A DNA stretch of 59,896 nt, the filler included. It is 5 parts of 5 records of this genome, joined end to end, with 100 filler letters (N's around TTAATTAATTAA, not from the genome) between each part and the next. Parts side by side here need not be neighbours in the genome. Positions count along the whole stretch, not along the records: positions 1 to 6,986 come from DRR723986_15151; 4 more parts are not named here. One strand, written 5' to 3'. A program made the position numbers and the translations under genes. The notes under the pieces were generated by a model. The model did no database searches and was not told where the DNA came from. It saw only the letters and a program-made list of their open reading frames with translations. Numbering within the stretch: the stretch's first letter is position 1; every line of letters starts with the position of its first letter. Shown here piece by piece: positions 1 through 44,961 of the stretch.

Positions 1-30
1 GGCTCGAACCAGCGACCTCGTCGATGTCAA
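1..30 (-). tRNA. tRNA-Val(GAC) 3'-half fragment (att core copy; homology ends at the anticodon loop)
   Basis: Reverse complement TTGACATCGACGAGGTCGCTGGTTCGAGCC = anticodon loop TTGACAT, 3' anticodon stem, variable loop and T-arm GGTTCGA. Sequence beyond 30 is not tRNA-like. Confidence 0.85.
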
Positions 31-94
31 AAATATGAACGGCTAGGCTTTCAGCCAAAAATCAGCTTTCAGCACCATCCCTCGCCTACAGTTA

Positions 95-107
95 AATCAA
101 AGGCTTA
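95..107 (+). promoter_or_regulatory. IHF consensus site in att arm
   Basis: AATCAAAGGCTTA matches WATCAANNNNTTR exactly, 65 nt from the att core. Confidence 0.6.
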
Positions 108-126
108 CCAAACCGTCTTGTCAGTA

Positions 127-147
127 TTGCAAACGGATTTGCAAAAC
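127..147 (+). repeat. Putative integrase arm-type sites (TTGCAAAC, TTTGCAAAAC)
   Basis: Tandem copies at 127-134 and 138-147; TTTGCAAAAC recurs at 6879-6888 on the other side of the core. Confidence 0.6.
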
Positions 148-199
148 CTGAGCACAGTTTATGGCAATCTCAGCCAAGCATCACGCATGGAGGTTTGCC

Positions 200-682
200 A
201 TGTCTGATAATCATGAGGTCACTATTCAACTGCGGGTCCCGGCGGCTGATGCAGATGCAATGGAAGAAGCAGTCAATGAGCTGCTTGCAAAAGCAAAGAC
301 CCAAGTGCGGCGTATAGCAGAAGAGGCAGAGCTTCGGACAATTGAACGTAAAAAGTTCAAGTACAGAACAAAGTCATTCTTCGCCTTAGCACCGGAAGCC
401 TTCAGGCTTTATCAAAAGTATCGCCAAGCTCATGCGTCCGCAAAAGCAACCTATTTGTTTATTGCCAACCAACTCCACTTGGATGCTCCCATAGCTGCTG
501 AAGCTCTCGTTCAAATCCATCGACGCAAACATATTAAGGAGCGCCAGAAAATGGCGCTGAAACTGGCTCGGCAAGGCCTGAGTAATACAGCAATTAGTAG
601 GCAACTGGGCGTATCGACAAGAACCGTTTCAAGGCTGCTTGTACCTCTTCTTCCATCAAAGTTGGGAGGCAAAAATGCATAG
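200..682 (+). CDS. DNA-binding protein with C-terminal helix-turn-helix
   Basis: GGAGG at 189-193 favours ATG 200 over 161; C-terminal GLSNTAISRQLGVSTRTVSRLL is a typical HTH. Confidence 0.75.
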   Translation: MSDNHEVTIQLRVPAADADAMEEAVNELLAKAKTQVRRIAEEAELRTIERKKFKYRTKSFFALAPEAFRLYQKYRQAHASAKATYLFIANQLHLDAPIAAEALVQIHRRKHIKERQKMALKLARQGLSNTAISRQLGVSTRTVSRLLVPLLPSKLGGKNA

Positions 683-971
683 CCTTCCAGCTACATTCGC
701 ACTTTGGCGACTTCAAGGTGAAACTGTTGCAAACCTCTTGTTTGACAGTCGCAGGAAACGCCAGTCCAAGGTGCTGAAAAGCGTTTTGAAAGTACTTGAT
801 CAAATTTGGACAAACCAATTTGGCGACCTGTACGTTGGTGAGCTGGTGCGACTGATCGATCTCCACCAGAAAGACGCCGCTTTGCTAGATGATACTGGCG
901 TTGGTGGTAATGCAGCAAACGATGATGATTTTGGCTTAGTGGCCTGCCCTTCGACCGAAGGGAATGCTTAA
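675..971 (+). CDS. Small hypothetical protein
   Basis: GGGAGG at 664-669; ATG 675 overlaps the upstream stop (ATGCATAG). Confidence 0.6.
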   Translation: MHSLPATFALWRLQGETVANLLFDSRRKRQSKVLKSVLKVLDQIWTNQFGDLYVGELVRLIDLHQKDAALLDDTGVGGNAANDDDFGLVACPSTEGNA

Positions 972-2752
972 TGATCTACACCCTAAAACCAGTTTGCACT
1001 TATGACGCACTGTCACAGCCCCGACCCGGTGGCGCTTTAGCGCCAGTGGTGCGGGAGGGGCTTGACCGGGCGGCGGCTCCTCACGCTGGCCCCGCAGGGG
1101 TCAGAAAACATTCTGACCCCTTGCCTAGCGGCGAGCGATTACTCTTTAAAAAACAACTCGCTTTCTCCAGCCTGTTTTTGAGTGTGGAGTGGTTAAACCT
1201 TTTTCAATTGCTCAATAAAAGCTGTTGTAAACGCGATGTAATGCGTAAATTCGGTTTCGAGAAACAAACCGGCCTCGACTTTATTTTCATGCCGGTTTAT
1301 TCGGTTGAATTTTCCAATTCGGCCTTGAATTTTGCGGATGTATATTTTGTATCTAGGTTCAAAAACCGTGATTATGCCGATAATGGAATTATTCAGAAGA
1401 ACGGCATTATTGCTCATGTTTTCATACACTGGCCTAAAAGGATAAAATTCCTCCACACGTTTTTCCTTCCAGACAGAGCTGTCGAGGTTTTGAAGCGCTT
1501 CAATATTTTTTTTCGCCAGTTCTTGAGAGACTTTGAGTTCTGCGATCATGCCGATTCTTATCGATTTCCGGAGAACATTTCTCTCTTTCTTGGCCTCACT
1601 AGCTCGCTCTTTCCATTCTGCTTGTTGTCGAGCATCCGCTTTTTTGTCCAAACGCAATTCTGCACGCAGTTGTCTAAAAAATCGCTGGTTTGTGTTGCGA
1701 TTGTTCCAAATAGCTATACCGATTGCAGCAAGGCCCGCGAGTGGCCCAGATATAGCCGCGGTAACATCAATCCAGTCTTTGTTACCGGAATAAGAACAAC
1801 AATATTGGGGCTGCCCCAACCAAAAGCCAATGTATCCAGCCGCAAAAATAACAAAAAGCGAAAGACAAAGAGTTTTCCAGTTGAGTTTCAAAATCATTCT
1901 TTTGACCTCTCTGATTTATTTTTCAACGAGCTCAAGACTAGGGTCCGGAGCTTTGGGGAGTTTGGAAAGCCATTTTTCGGTTTTAGCATACCGTTCTGGA
2001 AAATCCTGACGCTGAGCCTCAACAAGGGCATGCATATATTTCACAAGCGTTTTTCGCAGTGTTCCAGCGCTCCCATAAAGTGCGCGAAGGTCAATTGGGC
2101 CTGGGTTCGGTTTATTCAACGCGTCCCTGTATCGCCGCAAAGCTCTCTCATACTTAGATTGATTACGCGCGATTGCAGACACAGTATAGGCCGGCAGCGT
2201 CAACATTCGGTCGCCAAGGCTCTCATAAAACGGTCGAACAGGGTCAATGGCCTTTTTCTCGAAAAAATATTCAATAGCCTCTGCAGACAACTCACTGCTG
2301 CCGACAATGTATTTGAGATCAAAGGCGATATTATCAAGTTCAATTACCAAGTTGGTGCAGATCTGCTCTTGCTCAGCGCGTCTTCTGTTTTCAGAAACCA
2401 ACTCATTTTTTATGGAAATATAGAGTGCAACGAGCCCAGCAAGAGTTCCCGAAAGTGCAGAAAGGTATGGAATGAAATTGGGGTCACGATAATTGAAAAT
2501 AGAGAAGACAAGCAATGTCAGCACCAATATCAGTGCAGGCCAGCTCTTAGTTATTATTCTCTTCATTTTCATTTTTTGATCGCACCTTTTGCCATTCTGA
2601 ATACTAGAAATGTACCTGAAACGCTATCAATTAACGCAAACTACCGCTGTTCTATAGCGGTTCAGTGGATGAAAAATACCAATCCCCCCCTCCCTCTAAT
2701 AGGGGGGGTACTGTCTACAAACCCTCTTAAAAAGAGGGATGCTGGCATATGA
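971..2752 (+). CDS. 593-codon 'bridge' ORF antisense and in register to two cargo genes; product probably not a folded protein
   Basis: SD-like AAGGGA at 958-963, TAATG overlap at start, ATGA overlap with rep at end; stop-free over AT-rich DNA. Confidence 0.5.
   Translation: MIYTLKPVCTYDALSQPRPGGALAPVVREGLDRAAAPHAGPAGVRKHSDPLPSGERLLFKKQLAFSSLFLSVEWLNLFQLLNKSCCKRDVMRKFGFEKQTGLDFIFMPVYSVEFSNSALNFADVYFVSRFKNRDYADNGIIQKNGIIAHVFIHWPKRIKFLHTFFLPDRAVEVLKRFNIFFRQFLRDFEFCDHADSYRFPENISLFLGLTSSLFPFCLLSSIRFFVQTQFCTQLSKKSLVCVAIVPNSYTDCSKAREWPRYSRGNINPVFVTGIRTTILGLPQPKANVSSRKNNKKRKTKSFPVEFQNHSFDLSDLFFNELKTRVRSFGEFGKPFFGFSIPFWKILTLSLNKGMHIFHKRFSQCSSAPIKCAKVNWAWVRFIQRVPVSPQSSLILRLITRDCRHSIGRQRQHSVAKALIKRSNRVNGLFLEKIFNSLCRQLTAADNVFEIKGDIIKFNYQVGADLLLLSASSVFRNQLIFYGNIECNEPSKSSRKCRKVWNEIGVTIIENREDKQCQHQYQCRPALSYYSLHFHFLIAPFAILNTRNVPETLSINANYRCSIAVQWMKNTNPPLPLIGGVLSTNPLKKRDAGI
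1030..1130. other. GC-rich hairpin cluster, candidate single-strand origin (sso)
   Basis: TGGCGCT-TT-AGCGCCA (1030-1045) and AGGGGTCAGAA-AACA-TTCTGACCCCT (1096-1121); TAGCG motifs; lies upstream of the nick site. Confidence 0.5.
1193..1897 (-). CDS. Cargo membrane protein 1 (two N-terminal hydrophobic helices, charged coiled segment, helical domain)
   Basis: 234 aa with protein-like composition; paralogous motifs shared with 1916-2572. Confidence 0.8.
   Translation of the reverse strand: MILKLNWKTLCLSLFVIFAAGYIGFWLGQPQYCCSYSGNKDWIDVTAAISGPLAGLAAIGIAIWNNRNTNQRFFRQLRAELRLDKKADARQQAEWKERASEAKKERNVLRKSIRIGMIAELKVSQELAKKNIEALQNLDSSVWKEKRVEEFYPFRPVYENMSNNAVLLNNSIIGIITVFEPRYKIYIRKIQGRIGKFNRINRHENKVEAGLFLETEFTHYIAFTTAFIEQLKKV
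1916..2572 (-). CDS. Cargo membrane protein 2, paralog of 1193-1897
   Basis: SALSGTLAGLVALYISIKN vs AAISGPLAGLAAIGIAIWN; PVRPFYESL vs PFRPVYENM. Confidence 0.8.
   Translation of the reverse strand: MKMKRIITKSWPALILVLTLLVFSIFNYRDPNFIPYLSALSGTLAGLVALYISIKNELVSENRRRAEQEQICTNLVIELDNIAFDLKYIVGSSELSAEAIEYFFEKKAIDPVRPFYESLGDRMLTLPAYTVSAIARNQSKYERALRRYRDALNKPNPGPIDLRALYGSAGTLRKTLVKYMHALVEAQRQDFPERYAKTEKWLSKLPKAPDPSLELVEK
2601..2630 (-). promoter_or_regulatory. Candidate sigma70 promoter for the cargo operon
   Basis: TTGATA-18 nt-TAGTAT on the minus strand upstream of ATG 2572. Confidence 0.35.
2684..2708 (+). other. Rep_trans/MOB_T-type nick site hairpin (dso or oriT)
   Basis: C7-TCCCTCTAATA-G7. 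The loop contains CTCTAATAG as in the pT181-family dso; the C-run/G-run stem resembles ICEBs1 and Tn916 oriT. Lies 40 nt upstream of rep. Confidence 0.8.
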
Positions 2753-3945
2753 CAAGAAAGCGCTTGGATATTGATCTGCATTCCTGTGAAATCGATTATG
2801 GTTTTCTGATCTGCCATAACTTCGACTGGTGGCAAGAGGCGTTGAACCTCATGGTTCCAGTTACCTTGTGGAATAGCATGCTAAAGTCCAAGGAGGCTGC
2901 CAGAGAGTTAGACGATAGCAACAAGGCTTCCATTTCATTTGTTTTTGGTGGCGAGAAGTTCGAGCTTCAAGCCTACGGCCTGCGAAGCAAAGAGTTTGTC
3001 CTAATCAATGATGATATTCGGTTAGAGATCGGCCGCACCGATACGGCAATGGAATGGACGTTTGGTTGGCGTGCAACAGCCGCTGGCTTATGGGAGCACG
3101 GTGTAAAGGCACTCAGGCACCGTGTTTATACCATGTGCGACAAGGCGGGCCTGCGCCCAAGGGTTCGCGGACAATCGTGGATTAAACTTTCCAGAGCAGA
3201 TTATGCCTTCGATTTTTGGGCACCCGGTTTCACACCGGAAATGGAACCCGCTATTGCCGACAGATTTGTACTGCCTCCCGGTGTTAAAGGCAGTGGCAAT
3301 TTCTATCTAAAAAGCCCCAAAAAAGGCCAGTTTCATGCGCAACTGGAAACCTTCACTATTGGCAAGAAGGGTAGTCTGGAAATCCAGATATATGACAAGC
3401 TCACAGAAATCAGGGAAGCGTCAGGAAAAGAATGGATGCTGGATATATGGGCTGACTGTGGATACCAGCCCCCCGGCGAACCTTCTGATGTTTGGCGGTT
3501 GGAAGTCCGCATGTCTGGTGGCTGGCTCAAATCACGAACAGAAAAAGACCCAGAGAAGTTTTTGAGCCTCATGTGGCAGCTAATTGCGGAAGGCTTGCAA
3601 AGCCGCCGCTTAACGGTCCCACAAGGTGCTGACAGCAATCGTTCGCGTTGGCCTGTTCATCCACTATGGTCCCTTGCCATTGAAGCTGTTGGCGACCCTG
3701 AGGAGTTTGTGCCTGTAGGCCGTAAAATCACTGGAAAGCGTTCTGAGATCATCAGAAAATTCCAAACAGCTATAGCAGGCTATATGCGCACTGCTGCGGT
3801 TGTTGAGCATGGCATCACATTCACGGAAGAAGAACTCACAGAATTAGCGAGCAAGGCGGCGAGAGAGGCGCTTGCTGATAAGGAGCATAGTAAAAAGATA
3901 GCTCGTACGCAGGGACGGTATGAATTTGTGGATGAAGCTCAATGA
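2749..3945 (+). CDS. Rep_trans-family rolling-circle replication initiator / MOB_T-like relaxase
   Basis: Motifs LSRADYAFD, TFTIGKKG, IQIYDK (candidate catalytic Tyr), WRLEVR; adjacent nick hairpin. Confidence 0.8.
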   Translation: MTRKRLDIDLHSCEIDYGFLICHNFDWWQEALNLMVPVTLWNSMLKSKEAARELDDSNKASISFVFGGEKFELQAYGLRSKEFVLINDDIRLEIGRTDTAMEWTFGWRATAAGLWEHGVKALRHRVYTMCDKAGLRPRVRGQSWIKLSRADYAFDFWAPGFTPEMEPAIADRFVLPPGVKGSGNFYLKSPKKGQFHAQLETFTIGKKGSLEIQIYDKLTEIREASGKEWMLDIWADCGYQPPGEPSDVWRLEVRMSGGWLKSRTEKDPEKFLSLMWQLIAEGLQSRRLTVPQGADSNRSRWPVHPLWSLAIEAVGDPEEFVPVGRKITGKRSEIIRKFQTAIAGYMRTAAVVEHGITFTEEELTELASKAAREALADKEHSKKIARTQGRYEFVDEAQ

Positions 3946-4142
3946 CCGCCGCACTTCAATCATATACCCAAAATAGCCCAGCCACTACGGCAAGGCTCGC
4001 CATATCTGGTGGTGACGGCCAACACCAATTTAACAGACCCGGAACCCCCCATAGTTCCTCCCCCGGCATATTGCCGAAACTCTTCGGGCTCATGCCCGGT
4101 AAGACGCCATTAATATTGAAAGGAATTCATTATGGCTACTAA
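3942..4142 (+). CDS. 66-codon ORF bridging rep and the first XRE gene
   Basis: ATGA overlap with rep stop; its own stop overlaps the next start (ATGGCTACTAA); runs over hairpin-rich DNA. Confidence 0.4.
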   Translation: MTAALQSYTQNSPATTARLAISGGDGQHQFNRPGTPHSSSPGILPKLFGLMPGKTPLILKGIHYGY

Positions 4143-4995
4143 CAAACAGAATATCCCTTATGACGAACTGTCCGACTTTGGAGAGCGTCTTCGCTATGAA
4201 CGGGAAAAACAAGACCTCAGTCGACCAGCACTGTCGAAGCTAACTGGCAAAGCTATTTCTGCGCGTGTGATTGCGCACCTTGAGGACGGCAATACGGAAC
4301 CAAAACTCAAGCACAGTGAAATTTTGGCAGAAGTATTAGGCGTTGACGAAGTTTGGTTGAACCATGGCCTAACCAACGAAGACCAAAGCGAGCCAGATCA
4401 AGGCTTTGATAGCGTTCTTGGTGACCCAGTCAACGAATTGGACGAAACCAATTCGGGTGATTTCATGGGTGGTATCGACCAAGAAGCATCTGACAATATC
4501 GATGATGGCCCACAAACATTGGTACCCAGCAATGACAATCAAATGAGGCTCTACGTCGACACTGCATATGAATTGCTGGAGGTAATAGCTGCCATCAGGC
4601 ACGAAGGCTTTTTGCATCATATCAGAAAAATGCCCGGCTTGATTGAGCAAGCCATTGAAACCGGCAAGTTCCTCGAATTATCAGAAATTGAAGAGTTAGC
4701 GTCAGACCACAATGTCAACATTGATGGTGATATCCCCTTTGCGGAGCGCGAACCAACGGAAGATGAAATAAACGAAGTCATTCATCGTCTAATTGATACA
4801 GCGCTTCTTGGTATCGACCTCCATCAAGTGGACGTGGATAGTTTGCTCGCTTTTGCAAAAAGAAATCGAGTTCACCTTACGAGGCTTAACCGAAGGACCA
4901 TCTCAGCGTTGATAAATAAGTTGAGGCCAGTCTATTGGAACAGAGCGCTTGAGGATGGACTAACTGTTTCCACTTTCCTCTCGGAGACAGGCTAG
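4132..4995 (+). CDS. XRE-family HTH regulator with acidic linker and unknown C-terminal domain
   Basis: FGERLRYEREKQDLSRPALSKLT...LEDGNTEPKL...LAEVLGVDEVWL; SD AAGGA. Confidence 0.85.
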   Translation: MATNKQNIPYDELSDFGERLRYEREKQDLSRPALSKLTGKAISARVIAHLEDGNTEPKLKHSEILAEVLGVDEVWLNHGLTNEDQSEPDQGFDSVLGDPVNELDETNSGDFMGGIDQEASDNIDDGPQTLVPSNDNQMRLYVDTAYELLEVIAAIRHEGFLHHIRKMPGLIEQAIETGKFLELSEIEELASDHNVNIDGDIPFAEREPTEDEINEVIHRLIDTALLGIDLHQVDVDSLLAFAKRNRVHLTRLNRRTISALINKLRPVYWNRALEDGLTVSTFLSETG

Positions 4996-5678
4996 TGAAA
5001 ACGGGCTGGATTGACCAAAAATTAGTTCAGCCCAAATTTTGGTTGCTTTTTGTATATTTTATGTCATTATTGGATCATATGTTACTAATTTGTACTATGG
5101 ATACAATTTTGAAATTAAAATCAGAAAAATATGATGCTGCTAAACACTTTGAAAAGCCCGAAACCCTTGGGGATGAGCTTATTCGATGCAGGAAAAGGCT
5201 TGGGCTGTCCCGAACAGAACTTTCAAAGCGTTCAGGCATAGCCGCAAATTCCATATCCAAATATGAACAAGCAGGCCGAGTTGGCGGCCAATACCCACCA
5301 ATACCAAAACTTGCGAAGCTTTGCGTTGAGCTAGGCATTGATGCGCGTGAATTGCTCGCGATGACGCTAGAGGATAATCAGGATGCAATTACTCTGCTTG
5401 AAACTGGAGGCAGCCGGGACGACTATGAAAATCTGATGGGTGAGTTGACCGAGTTCGCAGAAAACCCTCAAAAGCCAATGGTGCTGTTTGACCGGAACAA
5501 CAATATGTTTTCTGTCACTCACATTCCCATGCAACAGCACCTTGCAAACCCATGGGATAAAACAGCAAAATTAAAAGAACCCGCGGAGGCTAGTTTGGCG
5601 ACGAGCTCCACGGGTTCAAATCCAAAATCAACACCAATCGCAAAAAAGGAGCCTGAAGATGGACAGTCCTCAGATTAA
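4995..5678 (+). CDS. Second XRE-family HTH regulator (GTG 4995 or ATG 5097 start)
   Basis: LGDELIRCRKRLGLSRTELSKRSGIAANSISKYE...LAKLCVELGID; GGAGA SD and TAGTG overlap support the GTG start. Confidence 0.85.
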   Translation: MKTGWIDQKLVQPKFWLLFVYFMSLLDHMLLICTMDTILKLKSEKYDAAKHFEKPETLGDELIRCRKRLGLSRTELSKRSGIAANSISKYEQAGRVGGQYPPIPKLAKLCVELGIDARELLAMTLEDNQDAITLLETGGSRDDYENLMGELTEFAENPQKPMVLFDRNNNMFSVTHIPMQQHLANPWDKTAKLKEPAEASLATSSTGSNPKSTPIAKKEPEDGQSSD

Positions 5679-6006
5679 TCCTCCTGATGAAATTGCACAA
5701 GCCCTTGCGTCCCTGCCGCTCTTTTTAAGCGTCAAGCGGGCTGCTGAGTTTTTAGGTTTCTGCGCTTCCACTATCCGAGAGATGGTGAAACGCGGAGAAC
5801 TAACAGCTCTTCGCCCAGAGGGTCGTAACATGCGTATTCCGCGCTATGCCATTACTCAATATCTGGAGGACAACACATGGCACGCCCAAGAAAAGGCCCC
5901 CGGCTCGTCCGTATCAACGGAAAAGACAACTGGTATGTCCGAGATGGACGCGGCACACAATTTACGACAGGAACTGCGGATAGGGAGAGCGCTGAATGCA
6001 CGCTAG
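5659..6006 (+). CDS. xis: Excisionase-like HTH protein
   Basis: FLSVKRAAEFLGFCASTIREMVKRGELTA...RIPR; SD AAGGAG; directly before and overlapping the integrase. Confidence 0.8.
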   Translation: MDSPQINPPDEIAQALASLPLFLSVKRAAEFLGFCASTIREMVKRGELTALRPEGRNMRIPRYAITQYLEDNTWHAQEKAPGSSVSTEKTTGMSEMDAAHNLRQELRIGRALNAR

Positions 6007-6926
6007 CCTCCTATATCGCAAAGAAGGCCATTCCAGCCCAGCCAACAATTGCCCAATTGCTGGATATGAGGATGGAAGACCTGCGAGCACGCAATGTGCC
6101 GTCCGCAAGCAACACTGTGTATCGTCACAATGCCTTGAAGCGCCATTTCGGACCACTAAGGCCGGAACAGCTTTCTATCGCCCTGATCAGCAAATTTCGG
6201 CAAGAGCACAACCATGTGCAAGCGATGCTGCGGGAATATCTACTGGAATTGAAATCAACGCTGAAAATGGCGAAGGACAACAATATAATTGCAACGGTCC
6301 TGCCCATATCAGTGCCAGCCAAAAACCCACCACGAGACAGGTTTCTAAGCCACGAGGAGGCCGCAAAGCTTTGGAACGCGGCTCACGGCGCTCATATCAA
6401 GCTTTTCATTCATCTGGCATTGGTTACCGGCGCACGCAAAGGCGCGATACTACAATTGACGTGGGACCGTGTGGACCTGGACAACGGGCGTTTGGATTTC
6501 AACGACCCGAACTGGCCAATAACCAACAAGCGCCGAACACTATCACCAATCGAACCGGCAGTGATCGAAATGCTGACCGAAGCAAAGACATTTGCAGAAA
6601 CCAACCACGTAATAGAGTTCAACGGGAAACCATTGAAAGACATAAAGAAGGGCTTCGCCTTGGCAGCAAAGAAAGCAGGCCTGAGTGGTGTAACACCGCA
6701 CACGTTGAAGCATACGGCAATATCGTGGCTGGCACAGGCAGGAAGCCCGATAGAACATATTGCTGCAATGACGGCCACAAACGCCAACACGGTGCGCCGC
6801 ATCTATCAGAAATTTGCACCGGAATACCTTCAAGACGAGGCGAAAATACTGTCAAATGCCATGAGTTTTACACACACATTTGCAAAACAGGCCCAATCAA
6901 CACAATCAAGCGAGGCCTCAATATGA
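5877..6926 (+). CDS. int: Tyrosine recombinase / integrase
   Basis: TGARKGAILQLTWDRVDL, TPHTLKHTAISW, C-terminal VRRIY; SD GGAGGA; adjacent to att. Confidence 0.93.
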   Translation: MARPRKGPRLVRINGKDNWYVRDGRGTQFTTGTADRESAECTLASYIAKKAIPAQPTIAQLLDMRMEDLRARNVPSASNTVYRHNALKRHFGPLRPEQLSIALISKFRQEHNHVQAMLREYLLELKSTLKMAKDNNIIATVLPISVPAKNPPRDRFLSHEEAAKLWNAAHGAHIKLFIHLALVTGARKGAILQLTWDRVDLDNGRLDFNDPNWPITNKRRTLSPIEPAVIEMLTEAKTFAETNHVIEFNGKPLKDIKKGFALAAKKAGLSGVTPHTLKHTAISWLAQAGSPIEHIAAMTATNANTVRRIYQKFAPEYLQDEAKILSNAMSFTHTFAKQAQSTQSSEASI

Positions 6927-6958
6927 TTGCAAGTTACTGTAATATAAGGGTTTTAAAA

Positions 6959-6986
6959 TGGTGGTCGGTACTGGGCTCGAACCAGC
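6959..6986 (-). tRNA. tRNA 3' end (T-arm, acceptor strand, CCA), truncated by contig end; att core copy
   Basis: Reverse complement GCTGGTTCGAGCCCAGTACCGACCACCA; overlaps and continues the fragment at 1-30, giving a 45-nt core. Confidence 0.85.
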
Positions 6987-7086
6987 NNNNNNNNNNNNNN
7001 NNNNNNNNNNNNNNNNNNNNNNNNNNNNNNTTAATTAATTAANNNNNNNNNNNNNNNNNNNNNNNNNNNNNNNNNNNNNNNNNNNN
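6987..7086. other. Artificial contig spacer
   Basis: 100 nt of N with TTAATTAATTAA (stops in all six frames) at 7031-7042. Confidence 0.98.
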
Positions 7087-7872
7087 GAAAACTCGGAAGA
7101 CATTTATGCGGGTATTGAATACGAAGCTGAAACTGACAAAGCCAAGAAACTGATCAAATTCTTGCGTGAAGAAATGGGTGTGAGCAAAATTCGTTTCCCC
7201 GAAACTTCAGGCATCGGCATCAAGCCAATTTCCAAAGAGGGCACTGAGCGCCTCTTCCGCAAGGCCGTTCAGTACGCCATCGACAACAAAAAGCCCTCAG
7301 TAACAATTGTGCACAAGGGCAACATCATGAAGTACACCGAAGGCGCTTTTGCGGCCTGGTCGTACGCTTTGGCCAAGAACGAATTCGGCGCCGAACTGCT
7401 GGACGGCGGCCCTTGGATGAAAATCAAGGCTGCGCATGGTGACATCGTGATCAAAGACGTGATTGCCGATGCTTTCTTGCAGCAAATTTTGCTGCGCCCT
7501 GCTGAGTACAGCGTGATTGCGACCATGAACTTGAATGGCGACTACATTTCCGATGCATTGGCCGCTCAGGTCGGTGGTATTGGTATTGCCCCCGGTGCGA
7601 ATCTGTCCGACTCCATCGCGATGTTCGAGGCTACCCACGGTACCGCACCGAAGTACGCCGGCAAAGACTACGTGAATCCAGGTTCACAAATTTTGTCTGC
7701 CGAAATGATGCTGCGTCACATGGGTTGGGTTGAGGCTGCTGATCTGATTATCACTTCCATGGAGAAATCCATTTCGTCCAAGAAGGTGACCTACGACTTC
7801 GCACGCTTGATGGATGGCGCTACACAGGTGAGCTGTTCCGGGTTCGGTCAGGTGATGATCGACCACATGTAA
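7087..7872 (+). CDS. icd: NADP-dependent isocitrate dehydrogenase, 5'-truncated
   Basis: [52 protein letters not shown]. Confidence 0.97.
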
Positions 7873-8576: not shown

Positions 8577-8885
8577 ATGAGTTCGCAAAACAATCCATCA
8601 ACAGTACTGGAATCGCAGACGCAAAAAGCGAAGCTGCCGCCGATGTATCAGGTCGTGCTCTTGAACGATGACTACACCCCCATGGAGTTCGTCGTGATTG
8701 TTTTGCAGAAGTTTTTTGGAAAGGGAAGGGAACAGGCCACCCAGATCATGCTGAAAGTGCATCGAGAGGGAAAAGGGGTCTGTGGGGTTTATCCCAAAGA
8801 CATCGCCTCGACGAAAGTCGAAATGGTATGCGGATTCGCAAAGCAGCATCAACACCCGCTGCAGTGCGTGATGGAGGAAACATGA
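8577..8885 (+). CDS. clpS: Clp protease adaptor ClpS
   Basis: [17 protein letters not shown]...MLKVHREG...HPLQC. Confidence 0.96.
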
Positions 8886-11206
8886 TTGCGCAAGAGTTGG
8901 AAGTTAGTTTGCACATGGCATTTGTTGACGCACGTCAGCAAAAGCATGAATTCATCACGGTAGAGCACCTTCTATTGGCCTTGCTGGACAATCCTTCAGC
9001 GGCTGAGGTGTTACGTTCATGCTCATGCGATGTCGAAGAAATTCGAAAGAACCTGCAAAATTTCATCAAGGACAACACCCCTGTGGTGTCAGGTCAGGAT
9101 GAGGTGGACACTCAGCCCACACTTGGATTTCAGCGCGTTATTCAGCGTGCCATCATGCACGTTCAGAGCACCTCCAACGGCAAGAAAGAAGTGACTGGTG
9201 CAAATGTGTTGGTGGCGATCTTCGGTGAGAAAGATTCACATGCAGTGTATTACCTGCACCAGCAGGGTATTACCCGTCTGGACGTGGTGAACTACATTTC
9301 ACACGGCATTACAAAAACTCCCCAGGCGCCTGCGCCGAAGCCTGAGAATTCCCAGAACGAGAATCAGGAGCAGGAGGCCGAGGCCACCCAAAATGTGGGT
9401 GACAAGCAATCGCCTCTGGACCAGTACACCCAGAATTTGAATGCATTGGCCAAGGAAGGGAAAATTGATCCGCTGATTGGCCGTGAGCAGGAAGTGGAGC
9501 GGGTTATTCAGGTGCTGTGCCGCCGCCGCAAAAACAACCCGCTCTTGGTGGGTGAGGCTGGTGTGGGTAAAACCGCGATTGCCGAGGGCTTGGCATGGAG
9601 AATTGTGCAGGGTGACGTGCCGGAAATTTTGGCAACAGCGCAGGTGCATTCACTGGACATGGGCGCGCTGCTGGCGGGCACCAAATACCGTGGCGATTTC
9701 GAACAGCGTTTGAAAGCGGTATTGAAACAGTTGAAAGCAAACCCGGATTCCGTGTTGTTCATTGATGAAATCCATACCCTGATTGGCGCAGGCTCCGCTT
9801 CTGGCGGCACGCTGGATGCGTCCAACTTGCTCAAGCCAGCCTTGTCCTCCGGGCAGCTGAAGTGCATCGGCGCAACCACCTTTACTGAATATCGTGGCAT
9901 TTTCGAGAAAGACCATGCACTGTCACGTCGATTCCAGAAAATTGATGTGTCTGAGCCCACTGTGGAACAAACCATTGAAATTTTGCGAGGCCTCAAGAGC
10001 CGGTTCGAAGACCACCATGGCGTGAAGTACTCCAGCGCGGCCATTTCGGCAGCCGCTGAGTTGTCGGCCAAGTTTATCAACGATCGTCATTTGCCCGACA
10101 AGGCCATTGACGTGATTGATGAAGCCGGTGCGGCGCAGCGTATTTTGCCAAAGAGCAAGCAGCGAAAAACAATTACCAAGGGCGACATTGAAGACATCGT
10201 GTCCAAGATCGCGCGCATTCCACCACAGTCGGTGAATACCGACGATCGGAACAAGCTTGCGACTCTCGATCGAGATTTGAAAGCCACCGTGTTTGGGCAG
10301 GACCCGGCCATTGAGGCGCTGGCCAATGCCATCAAAATGTCGCGTGCCGGTTTGGGCAAGGCTGACAAGCCGATTGGATCGTTCCTGTTCAGCGGCCCCA
10401 CGGGTGTCGGTAAAACAGAGGTGGCCAAACAGTTGGCGTTCATTCTCGGTATTGAAATGCTGCGGTTTGACATGTCGGAGTACATGGAGCGCCATGCTGT
10501 TTCCCGGCTGATTGGTGCCCCCCCCGGCTACGTTGGTTTTGACCAGGGCGGTTTGCTGACTGAAGCCATTACCAAGAAACCGCATTGCGTGTTGTTGCTG
10601 GATGAAATTGAAAAAGCGCACCCTGATGTGTTCAACATTCTGTTGCAGGTCATGGACAATGGCACTTTGACCGACAACAACGGTCGTAAGGCGGACTTCC
10701 GCAACGTGATCATTATCATGACCACCAATGCAGGTGCAGAGGCTTTGACCAAGCGCGGTATTGGCTTTATGGAGTCGAAGGTTCAGGGCGACGAGATGGA
10801 AGACATCAAACGCATGTTCAGCCCCGAGTTCCGCAACCGCCTTGATTCTGTCATTTCATTCCGCGCGCTGGATGAAGAAATCATTCTTCGCGTGGTCGAC
10901 AAGTTCCTGATGGAACTTGAAGAGCAGTTACACCAGAAGAAAGTCGATGCAGTATTCACAGACGATCTGCGTAAACATCTGGCGAAAAAAGGTTTTGATC
11001 CACTCATGGGTGCCCGACCCATGCAACGTTTGATCCAGGACACCATTCGCAAAGCTTTGGCTGATGAATTGCTGTTTGGCAAGCTGGTCAGTGGCGGCAA
11101 GGTGACCGTGGATCACGACGTAGAAAACGACCAGGTGTCGCTGACTTTTGATGAAGGTTCATCAGGTCAGGAGTCGGAGAGCGGTACTGAGGTGGCGGTT
11201 GATTAA
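8882..11206 (+). CDS. clpA: Clp protease ATP-binding subunit ClpA
   Basis: [11 protein letters not shown] start; Walker A motifs GEAGVGKT and [11 protein letters not shown] loop; ATGA-coupled to clpS. Confidence 0.97.
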
Positions 11207-12758: not shown

Positions 12759-12858
12759 NNNNNNNNNNNNNNNNNNNNNNNNNNNNNNNNNNNNNNNNNN
12801 NNTTAATTAATTAANNNNNNNNNNNNNNNNNNNNNNNNNNNNNNNNNNNNNNNNNNNN
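12759..12858. other. Artificial contig spacer
   Basis: N run with TTAATTAATTAA at 12803-12814. Confidence 0.98.
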
Positions 12859-24370: not shown

Positions 24371-24470
24371 NNNNNNNNNNNNNNNNNNNNNNNNNNNNNN
24401 NNNNNNNNNNNNNNTTAATTAATTAANNNNNNNNNNNNNNNNNNNNNNNNNNNNNNNNNNNNNNNNNNNN
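24371..24470. other. Artificial contig spacer
   Basis: N run with TTAATTAATTAA at 24415-24426. Confidence 0.98.
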
Positions 24471-44861: not shown

Positions 44862-44961
44862 NNNNNNNNNNNNNNNNNNNNNNNNNNNNNNNNNNNNNNN
44901 NNNNNTTAATTAATTAANNNNNNNNNNNNNNNNNNNNNNNNNNNNNNNNNNNNNNNNNNNN
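44862..44961. other. Artificial contig spacer
   Basis: N run with TTAATTAATTAA at 44906-44917. Confidence 0.98.

Follow-up and report, generated by a model that had tools for sequence, protein, structure and literature searches.

A plus-strand reading frame kept open across antisense genes of a small integrating rolling-circle element

We analysed a window of 59,896 nucleotides, made of five assembled pieces joined end to end, whose first piece (positions 1-6986, from record DRR723986_15151) is a small integrating rolling-circle element, here called W, with all its backbone genes on the plus strand. Between the second backbone gene, ORF2 (ORF, open reading frame), and rep, the gene of the replication initiator, lie two minus-strand genes, gA and gB, and opposite them the plus strand holds a single uninterrupted frame of 593 codons, which we call the bridge ORF (for all coordinates see Table 1). 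Our main finding is that this frame is kept open, from the stop of ORF2 to the start of rep, by selection on the spacers and on the synonymous sites of gA and gB, which are without TTA, CTA and TCA codons. The selected trait appears to be the open frame, since the bridge peptide shows no sign of conservation. The pattern recurs in three related elements, named L001, L003 and L096. Judging from sequence, we give a probability of roughly 0.55 to the explanation that the backbone is one coupled operon, in which the antisense stretch would have to stay translated so that transcript and ribosomes reach rep.

The open frame opposite gA and gB

The original prediction placed the bridge ORF in exact codon register with both minus-strand genes, the register being carried from one to the other by a spacer of 18 nt, and the ORF coordinates bear this out. 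In this register any TTA, CTA or TCA codon of gA or gB would put a stop into the plus frame. The hand count behind the claim (50 leucine and 26 serine codons) proved exact: TTA, CTA and TCA each occur 0 times, and of the 76 possible stops in the register frame 0 are realized. It was also correct that gA and gB do use ATA (10 of 38 isoleucine codons) and AGA (8 codons). Because they use other codons ending in A freely as well (CGA 9 times, AAA for 29 of 36 lysines, CAA for 10 of 15 glutamines, GCA in 10 of 41, CCA in 6 of 18 and ACA in 5 of 17 cases), there is no general avoidance of A-ending codons. The two genes are lower in G+C than their surroundings (41.3% for gA and 44.9% for gB, versus 49.5% for rep), and the use of TTA, CTA and TCA should therefore be raised, not absent. 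Rep itself contains five TTA, five CTA and three TCA codons, among them the cited examples at 2881, 2908 and 2935, which are in frame and read as claimed. Over the seven backbone genes of W, TTA and CTA make up 21.7% of the leucine codons and TCA makes up 25.8% of the serine codons.

For the probability of an open register frame we used the formula given in the accessible part of a survey of antiparallel ORFs (bioRxiv 10.1101/724807), with two sets of background codon usage: the backbone genes of W and the 30 other long ORFs located on the remaining four pieces of the window. With the usage of the W backbone, the log10 P of zero antisense stops is -3.66 for gA and -5.02 for gB; with that of the 30 ORFs, it is -5.28 for both genes jointly. 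The 139 spacer codons of the bridge add a further -2.6. None of the 30 ORFs (0/30) is free of the three codons, and when windows were slid along them, those of 234 codons lacked all three in 173 of 8117 cases, those of 452 codons in 0 of 3652 and those of 593 codons in 0 of 1885. Two antisense shadow ORFs, of 116 and 232 codons, also lie in register with the ClpA/ClpB-type ATPase gene at 8828-11206, and a lone shadow of the size of one gene can thus be due to chance. An open frame across two genes and 139 spacer codons is not.

The bridge ORF is joined to the genes on either side, as had been proposed: it starts at a TAATG on the ORF2 stop, behind a Shine-Dalgarno sequence (GAAGGGAA), and ends at an ATGA on the rep start. 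The frame also remains open, again in agreement with the claim, over the structured hairpin cluster and the nick-site-like motif that enclose gA and gB, the latter at the probable replication origin, and over a promoter-like site upstream of gB that is a consensus match only. More generally, the plus strand of W is an unbroken chain of ORFs in which each overlaps the next, all 8 of 8 junctions from 675 to 5877 being overlapping, as in a translationally coupled operon; the minus strand carries just gA and gB.

Comparison with the counterparts in L001 shows that the minus-strand genes are real. The protein of gA aligns with its L001 homologue at 149 bits (36% identity), versus 45 bits for the plus-strand reading of the same DNA, and for gB the scores are 67 bits and 25 bits. 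The annotation of the L001 genome at NCBI likewise calls the minus-strand genes. The plus reading is no more than an echo of the similarity of the minus-strand genes, and its low scores (45 versus 149 and 25 versus 67 bits) indicate that the antisense translation is not under purifying selection. No family above threshold was found for the bridge ORF, gA or gB in Pfam, PADLOC, PHROGs or NCBIfam. Together with most of their counterparts in the related elements, gA and gB form one diverged family (20-36% identity) with two N-terminal transmembrane helices and conserved motifs in the alignment. This family is rare, a profile search among 1.84 billion proteins returning just 47 representatives at E <= 0.001, several of which share contigs with Rep homologues. 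The model of gA (from 31 sequences; mean pLDDT, the predicted local distance difference score, of 90) shows two membrane helices, a 95-residue helix and a helical bundle; compared with the PDB it gave no match at E <= 0.001, and only generic helical bundles were returned. Feature-based look-alikes of gA in the Atlas are unnamed clusters, with DUF4760 (0.79) and a retron Ec48 effector membrane protein (0.76) as weak leads. The term "cargo" in the original prediction therefore needs qualification: the genes under the frame are not arbitrary passengers but mostly members of one rare protein family that travels with the elements, while the constraint to keep the frame open is itself supported.

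The same frame in related elements

The element L001 lies in a Kordiimonadaceae genome and has a rep 82% identical to that of W. Upstream of rep it carries four antisense genes, covered by two bridge ORFs (583 and 619 codons) that overlap each other by TGATG; the first begins with ATGA on the stop of the helix-turn-helix (HTH) gene and the second finishes with ATGA on rep. A fifth antisense gene follows rep, under an ORF of 549 codons that is joined by its starting ATGA to the rep stop and leads in frame into the regulator gene XRE1. The five antisense genes contain 112 leucine and 78 serine codons with TTA, CTA and TCA at 0, and the remaining two plus frames over them are full of stops. In L003, a metagenome locus whose rep is 51% identical to that of W, the antisense gene at 7166-7864 has 0 of the avoided codons among 19 leucines and 17 serines, whereas the backbone of the same element uses TTA or CTA for 35% of leucines and TCA for 34% of serines. 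Its bridge of 342 codons begins at a TAATG on ORF2 and at its end overlaps rep by 8 nt. L096, found with the cargo profile in a genome of the same family as L001, has one antisense gene with 0 avoided codons among 29 leucines and 13 serines, under a bridge of 320 codons that starts with the hairpin cluster shared with W and ends with ATGA on the downstream gene. For that gene BLAST shows no similarity to rep, and Pfam has no family.

The expectation that related elements with different cargo would retain an uninterrupted frame, leading from the upstream gene to the backbone gene that follows, was thus borne out in L001, L003 and L096. The narrower wording, according to which the opposite strand has to stay translatable into rep, holds for the bridges that reach rep in W, L001 and L003, but rep is not the target as such: L001 also has a bridge from rep to XRE1, and since the bridge of L096 is coupled to a gene other than rep, the rule is one of the operon and is not tied to a single protein. 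We also noted a non-conserved ORF that starts with ATGA on the rep stop and leads toward XRE1 in W (the 66-codon ORF), in L003 (9191-9331) and in L001 (9194-10226); for the one in W no family was found in PADLOC, PHROGs or NCBIfam. Short "filler" ORFs may therefore bridge other gaps of the operon too.

All nine antisense genes of W, L001, L003 and L096 are exactly in register with their bridge ORFs, and among the antisense genes examined in five loci 9 of 11 are without TTA, CTA and TCA. The log10 P per gene ranges from -2.8 to -6.6 and sums to -33.7 for eight genes; the L096 gene adds about -4.8, computed from its codon counts. The gaps between adjacent cargo genes (18, 75 and 54 nt) are multiples of three, and the non-cargo codons under the bridges are also open (357 in L001 and 109 in L003, with log10 P of -7.7 and -2.0). 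The number of cargo genes per slot varies between elements (1, 2 or 4). At 20-36% protein identity synonymous sites are saturated, and the genes are therefore effectively independent trials in which the avoidance has been continuously maintained.

Two antisense genes do contain the avoided codons, and both stand where the constraint should not apply, as the original prediction would have it. The first, at 10336-11043 of L003, lies between XRE1 and XRE2, encodes a four-helix membrane protein and is covered by no plus-strand ORF; it has 9 TTA, 4 CTA and 7 TCA codons (20 in total) among 30 leucines and 17 serines. The second is a cargo homologue in L095 (genome G499), situated with a host aminotransferase gene on one side and a tRNA-like stretch on the other. 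It has one CTA, at codon 96, which splits the plus frame into 226 and 254 codons; rep is absent from the ORFs of this locus, and the search across the order did not report it for this genome either. The locus (8924-10396) probably represents a decayed element; its solitary cargo-family gene adjoins the tRNA-like stretch and a degenerate motif resembling the origin. Both exceptions are as predicted by a constraint that is specific to the slot and dependent on rep, with one case of each kind.

Loci without antisense genes were also inspected. L002 is a fragment with rep and XRE1 beside a tRNA; it has no antisense genes, yet an open frame of 124 codons ends on its rep. The region 5700-9950 of L002 holds the tRNA, a hairpin region, the origin, rep and XRE1, followed by genes for a MerR-like regulator, a cation-efflux protein and an RND-type efflux system, and no integrase was found within the locus. 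In the Rep relatives at 49% identity or less that we examined, there are neither antisense genes ahead of rep nor a long frame upstream of it.

Why the frame would be kept open

Stops matter only to ribosomes, the junctions overlap at both ends of the bridge and the peptide is unconserved; together these features argue for selection for translation through the stretch. In coupled operons the translation of one gene feeds that of the next, and translation protects the operon RNA from Rho-dependent polarity, so that distal genes depend on upstream translation. The junctions of the ATGA and TAATG type in W and its relatives are like those of such operons. There, however, ribosomes translate a genuine gene or a short leader peptide, while here the translated stretch would be an antisense "filler" of 320 to about 1,200 codons. 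In the scheme we propose, once the plus-strand operon is switched on, ribosomes leaving ORF2 would restart at the TAATG overlap, translate the 593 codons of the bridge and hand over to rep at the ATGA overlap. This continuous translation would cover 1.8 kb of antisense RNA that is otherwise non-coding and would let it escape Rho-type polarity, degradation or pairing with the convergent cargo mRNA, with the outcome that rep and the genes after it are expressed; left untranslated, an antisense stretch of 1.4-3.6 kb would cost the distal genes their expression. We infer that ribosomes do translate the bridge frame and that rep would be expressed less if a stop interrupted it. One may generalize this into a "mirror-frame rule", to which we would give even odds: genes that point backwards before or just after rep would have to be synonymously recoded and spaced in threes so that ribosomes can read through, and the bridges, from 320 to about 1,200 codons, would be meaningless as peptides, the absence of stops being their sole selected property.

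Several points weigh against the coupled-operon explanation or limit its basis. The comparison is small, with four elements (W, L001, L003 and L096) and one remnant (L095), and L001, L095 and L096 all come from one bacterial family, L003 being a metagenome contig. In each of the four elements rep is provided with a Shine-Dalgarno sequence of its own, and strict translational coupling is therefore not required. The ratio of C to G is 1.07-1.23 over the antisense stretches versus 0.80-0.87 in rep, but windows with a ratio of at least 1.5, which resemble Rho-loading sites, are not enriched in the antisense stretches compared with the backbone genes, so that composition lends the Rho part of the scheme no clear support. 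The unbridged antisense gene of L003 stands before XRE2 and the excisionase and integrase genes, which implies that downstream modules can be expressed without a bridge; in that case they are presumably driven by a promoter of their own. Finally, convergent transcription of the cargo would still collide with the polymerase of the operon, whether its RNA is translated or not. A small RNA hairpin that contains the rep Shine-Dalgarno sequence of W was considered as a general mechanism and dropped, as it appears to be conserved neither in L001 nor in L003.

The main rival to the coupled-operon explanation is silencing. The long plus-strand RNA would repress, on induction, harmful or immunity-effector proteins with two transmembrane helices, by transcriptional interference and antisense pairing, and the open frame would let this RNA survive. 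Such a role would suit a promoter-like site of the cargo that faces the operon, a cargo of membrane proteins whose look-alikes include the retron Ec48 effector (at 0.76, a lead only) and a bridge that is present even with the non-homologous downstream gene of L096. We consider it improbable all the same, because the bridge ends in every element exactly on the start codon of the next gene, which silencing alone does not need, because the unbridged antisense gene of L003 indicates that covering is not obligatory, and because a toxicity of these two-helix proteins is without support. It is less probable still that the bridge encodes a functional protein of its own overlapping gA and gB. The ORF is long, with a Shine-Dalgarno sequence and an ATG, and its first 55 or so residues look conserved among W, L003 and L096; this part of it, however, is where the hairpin cluster lies (L003 7012-7162; L096 1254-1400, minus strand), which is more conserved than any protein of these elements. 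As the differences in the cluster spread over the codon positions as 9/9/9 and 6 of its 49 predicted pairs show compensatory changes across the three elements, the conservation of the bridge N-terminus is that of a nucleic-acid structure and not of a protein. A second protein is also at odds with the lack of a family in four libraries, with the low bit scores of the plus reading and with a length and content that track the cargo (593 codons in W, 583 and 619 in L001, 342 in L003 and 320 in L096).

Two further explanations seem to us highly unlikely. TTA, CTA and TCA all end in A and are decoded by tRNAs with U at the wobble position. This common property would make sense if gA and gB avoided the three codons for the benefit of their own translation, for instance because the tRNAs are scarce or cleaved, and the open frame were a by-product; but the other codons ending in A are used normally (GCA, CCA and ACA as given above, 9 CGA and 10 ATA), the backbone genes of the same element use TTA, CTA and TCA, and the open spacers (total log10 P of -12.3), their lengths in multiples of three and the overlapping junctions would be left unexplained. 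The other possibility is overprinting, in which a plus-strand gene came first, the two-helix genes arose de novo antisense to it and the open frame is a relic; according to the accessible part of the survey (bioRxiv 10.1101/724807), the register frame is the easiest one for two coexisting long ORFs. In a cargo family as diverged as this one, with saturated synonymous sites, a relic frame would hold stops, the number of cargo genes in the same slot differs between elements, and the L095 remnant gained its stop once rep was gone. Chance or codon bias of the ordinary kind would be in line with the length that register antisense frames often reach, with shadow ORFs of this kind that are common here (for example, the 232 codons in the Clp ATPase gene) and with the 2.1-2.5% of gene-sized stretches in the window's other ORFs that contain none of the three codons. 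If the empirical 2.5% is applied to each gene, however, nine genes in four elements that are all at zero have a probability of about 4e-15, windows as long as gA and gB together were never free, and the low G+C of the two genes (41-45%) should raise the use of the avoided codons, so that this explanation can practically be dismissed.

The element, its relatives and the meaning of the rule

The W piece measures 6,986 bp, with 47.4% G+C. The pieces of the window are joined by linkers (44 N, TTAATTAATTAA, 44 N) at 6987-7086, 12759-12858, 24371-24470 and 44862-44961, and what follows W in the window is therefore not its genomic neighbourhood; the idea that the N runs were masked tRNA genes was rejected, as they are these assembly linkers. 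With a tyrosine recombinase, an excisionase-like gene and a tRNA-like terminal repeat, W has the predicted features of a tRNA-targeting integrative element. The repeat of 13 nt at its ends is a probable attachment (att) core or circle junction, and the piece would therefore represent either a closed circle or an element excised at att repeats by the assembler. Sequence resembling tRNA also flanks L001 and L003; in the window no tRNA gene was called, the first piece ending inside the tRNA-like stretch. ORF2 has homologues in L003 and L096, with 41% identity to the ORF2-like protein of L096 (E 9e-14). A weak Rfam match to RT-7 RNA at 5555-5797 on the minus strand (22.6 bits versus a gathering score of 116.8, E 0.035) is probably due to chance.

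Table 1. Features of element W, in order along the window
Feature	Position	Strand	Remarks
Terminal overlap, 13 nt	1-13 = 6974-6986		GGCTCGAACCAGC; suffix equals prefix; resembles 3' part of a tRNA
HTH gene	161-682	+	first gene of the backbone; 173 aa; C-terminal HTH; Pfam HTH_23, 1.9e-7
ORF2	675-971	+	small backbone gene; ATG overlaps HTH stop (ATGCATAG)
Bridge ORF	971-2752	+	593 codons; TAATG (969-973) on ORF2 stop; ATGA (2749-2752) on rep start
Structured hairpin cluster	994-1142		DNA fold, z -4.8; two compound hairpins, ~135 nt
gA	1193-1897	-	234 aa; TTA/CTA/TCA = 0 among 21 Leu and 11 Ser codons
gA-gB spacer	1898-1915		18 nt; keeps both genes in one register
gB	1916-2572	-	218 aa; distant gA paralogue; TTA/CTA/TCA = 0 among 29 Leu and 15 Ser codons
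Promoter-like site upstream of gB	2601-2630	-	TTGATA, 18 nt, TAGTAT; consensus match only
Origin-like hairpin	2687-2707	+	C-run / CTCTAATAG / G-run, just upstream of rep; unique in window
Small RNA hairpin	2722-2738	+	contains rep Shine-Dalgarno sequence AGAGGG; RNA fold, z -2.55
rep	2749-3945	+	Rep_trans-like rolling-circle initiator
66-codon ORF	3942-4142	+	rep overlap ATGA; XRE1 overlap 11 nt
XRE1	4132-4995	+	XRE regulator; Pfam HTH_3/HTH_31 hits cover the XRE pair
XRE2	4995-5678	+	XRE regulator; Pfam HTH_3/HTH_31 hits cover the XRE pair
Excisionase-like gene	5659-6006	+	Pfam HTH_17, 1.1e-10
Tyrosine integrase	5877-6926	+	Pfam Phage_integrase, 1.1e-14

The hairpin cluster at the start of the bridge has no family in Rfam; it may act as a single-strand origin or as an RNA. 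In L001 and L002 a different hairpin region occupies the same position. The hairpin just upstream of rep is a probable double-strand origin with its nick site, and we take its motif to resemble the nick site of pT181. Its sequence, CCCC(T/A)CCCTCTAA(T/C)AGGGGGG, is invariant in W, L001, L002 and L003, and the origin-like motif was found upstream of rep in 13 of the 89 loci examined, distant relatives included. Among distant Rep genes it stands upstream of the gene or within its start in L089 (4362-4382, minus strand), L013, L014, L017, L018, L019, L040 and L065/L088; the relatives that have it include a filamentous-phage (inovirus) contig from IMG/VR.

The Rep of W scores 17.5 bits against Pfam PF02486, below the cut-off of 29.6, and the family is matched at E <= 0.01 by 33 of 49 aligned Rep homologues, the best at 1.5e-7. 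Homologues of Rep at E <= 0.001 number 99, and a profile search for a solved structure returned none. Among eleven homologues at 49-54% identity (P0004-P0014), six are known only from contigs of 6.2-8.1 kb, a length in keeping with an element of about 7 kb that is free or was assembled separately. Scans for relatives gave 1 locus in genome contigs, 58 loci in metagenomes, of which just L002-L007 reach at least 42% identity, and 3 distant loci in IMG/VR. Matches were obtained in 13 of 401 genomes of the class sample and 7 of 301 of the order sample, neither of which contained a rep closer than 49% besides that of L001's own genome; the phage collection gave no match and the plasmid collection 3 weak ones. 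Relatives of Rep at 31-49% identity were found in corticovirus-like prophages (L006, L007, L016, L028, L031 and L083-L088), which carry Rep, a zinc-finger protein, a P-loop ATPase, a capsid-sized protein of ~280 residues and a protein similar to cell-wall hydrolases. The 7-kb element could be a satellite of corticovirus-like phages, as it shares Rep and the origin with them and has no structural genes.

Rolling-circle replicons with an initiator of the Rep_trans family (PF02486) include plasmids of the pT181 type, filamentous phages of the CTX type and corticoviruses like PM2. W resembles them through its Rep homologue and through the CTCTAATAG hairpin just upstream of rep, which it shares with the corticovirus-like prophages and the inovirus contig. 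Unlike them, it is without capsid, ATPase and filament genes and has an integrase, an excisionase-like gene and two XRE regulators, and its origin is split by the embedded antisense genes.

The frame itself has its closest parallel in the survey from which we took the probability formula: its accessible part reports, for 929 genomes, 2,898 antiparallel ORFs with significant stop-codon avoidance among 10.5 million (bioRxiv 10.1101/724807). The likeness lies in the frame, in which antisense stops fall opposite TTA, CTA and TCA, and in the selection, since there too the sense gene is under purifying selection and the antisense translation is not (bioRxiv 10.1101/724807). As far as that part of the text goes, such frames are treated as isolated statistical oddities, with dnaK as the main example and no function given (bioRxiv 10.1101/724807). 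By comparison with the cases presented there, the frame in W and its relatives spans several genes and their spacers, is joined by stop/start overlaps to the flanking genes, recurs in relatives with different cargo and is missing from a control slot. Antisense overlapping genes such as asa in enterohaemorrhagic Escherichia coli (PMC6294744) are similar in that a long ORF runs antisense to an annotated gene; in the accessible part of that work these genes are proposed to encode proteins, whereas the evidence on the W bridge speaks against a functional peptide. In the open-access literature searched, we found no description of an antisense frame that runs over several embedded genes with their spacers, is tied into an operon by overlapping codons, recurs in related mobile elements whose cargo differs and is lacking in a control slot.

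Long antisense ORFs are usually dismissed as shadows or debated as second proteins, and the elements described here suggest a third option, in which translation itself, over several genes in one defined slot, is what counts; the comparative evidence for it is unusually clean. If this is true, they would be the first example of selection that favours an open antisense frame as such instead of a second protein, and a mobile element would be subject to a hidden filter on which genes it can carry and in which orientation. If confirmed, the opposite strand would exert a selective force on synonymous sites, and a mobile element could accommodate genes that run the "wrong" way inside an operon, with no need for a cassette insulated by terminators. 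For annotation it would follow that the short minus-strand genes should be called, and not the long ORF. The link between translation and the survival of a transcript would also become testable in a natural system through a single synonymous base change.

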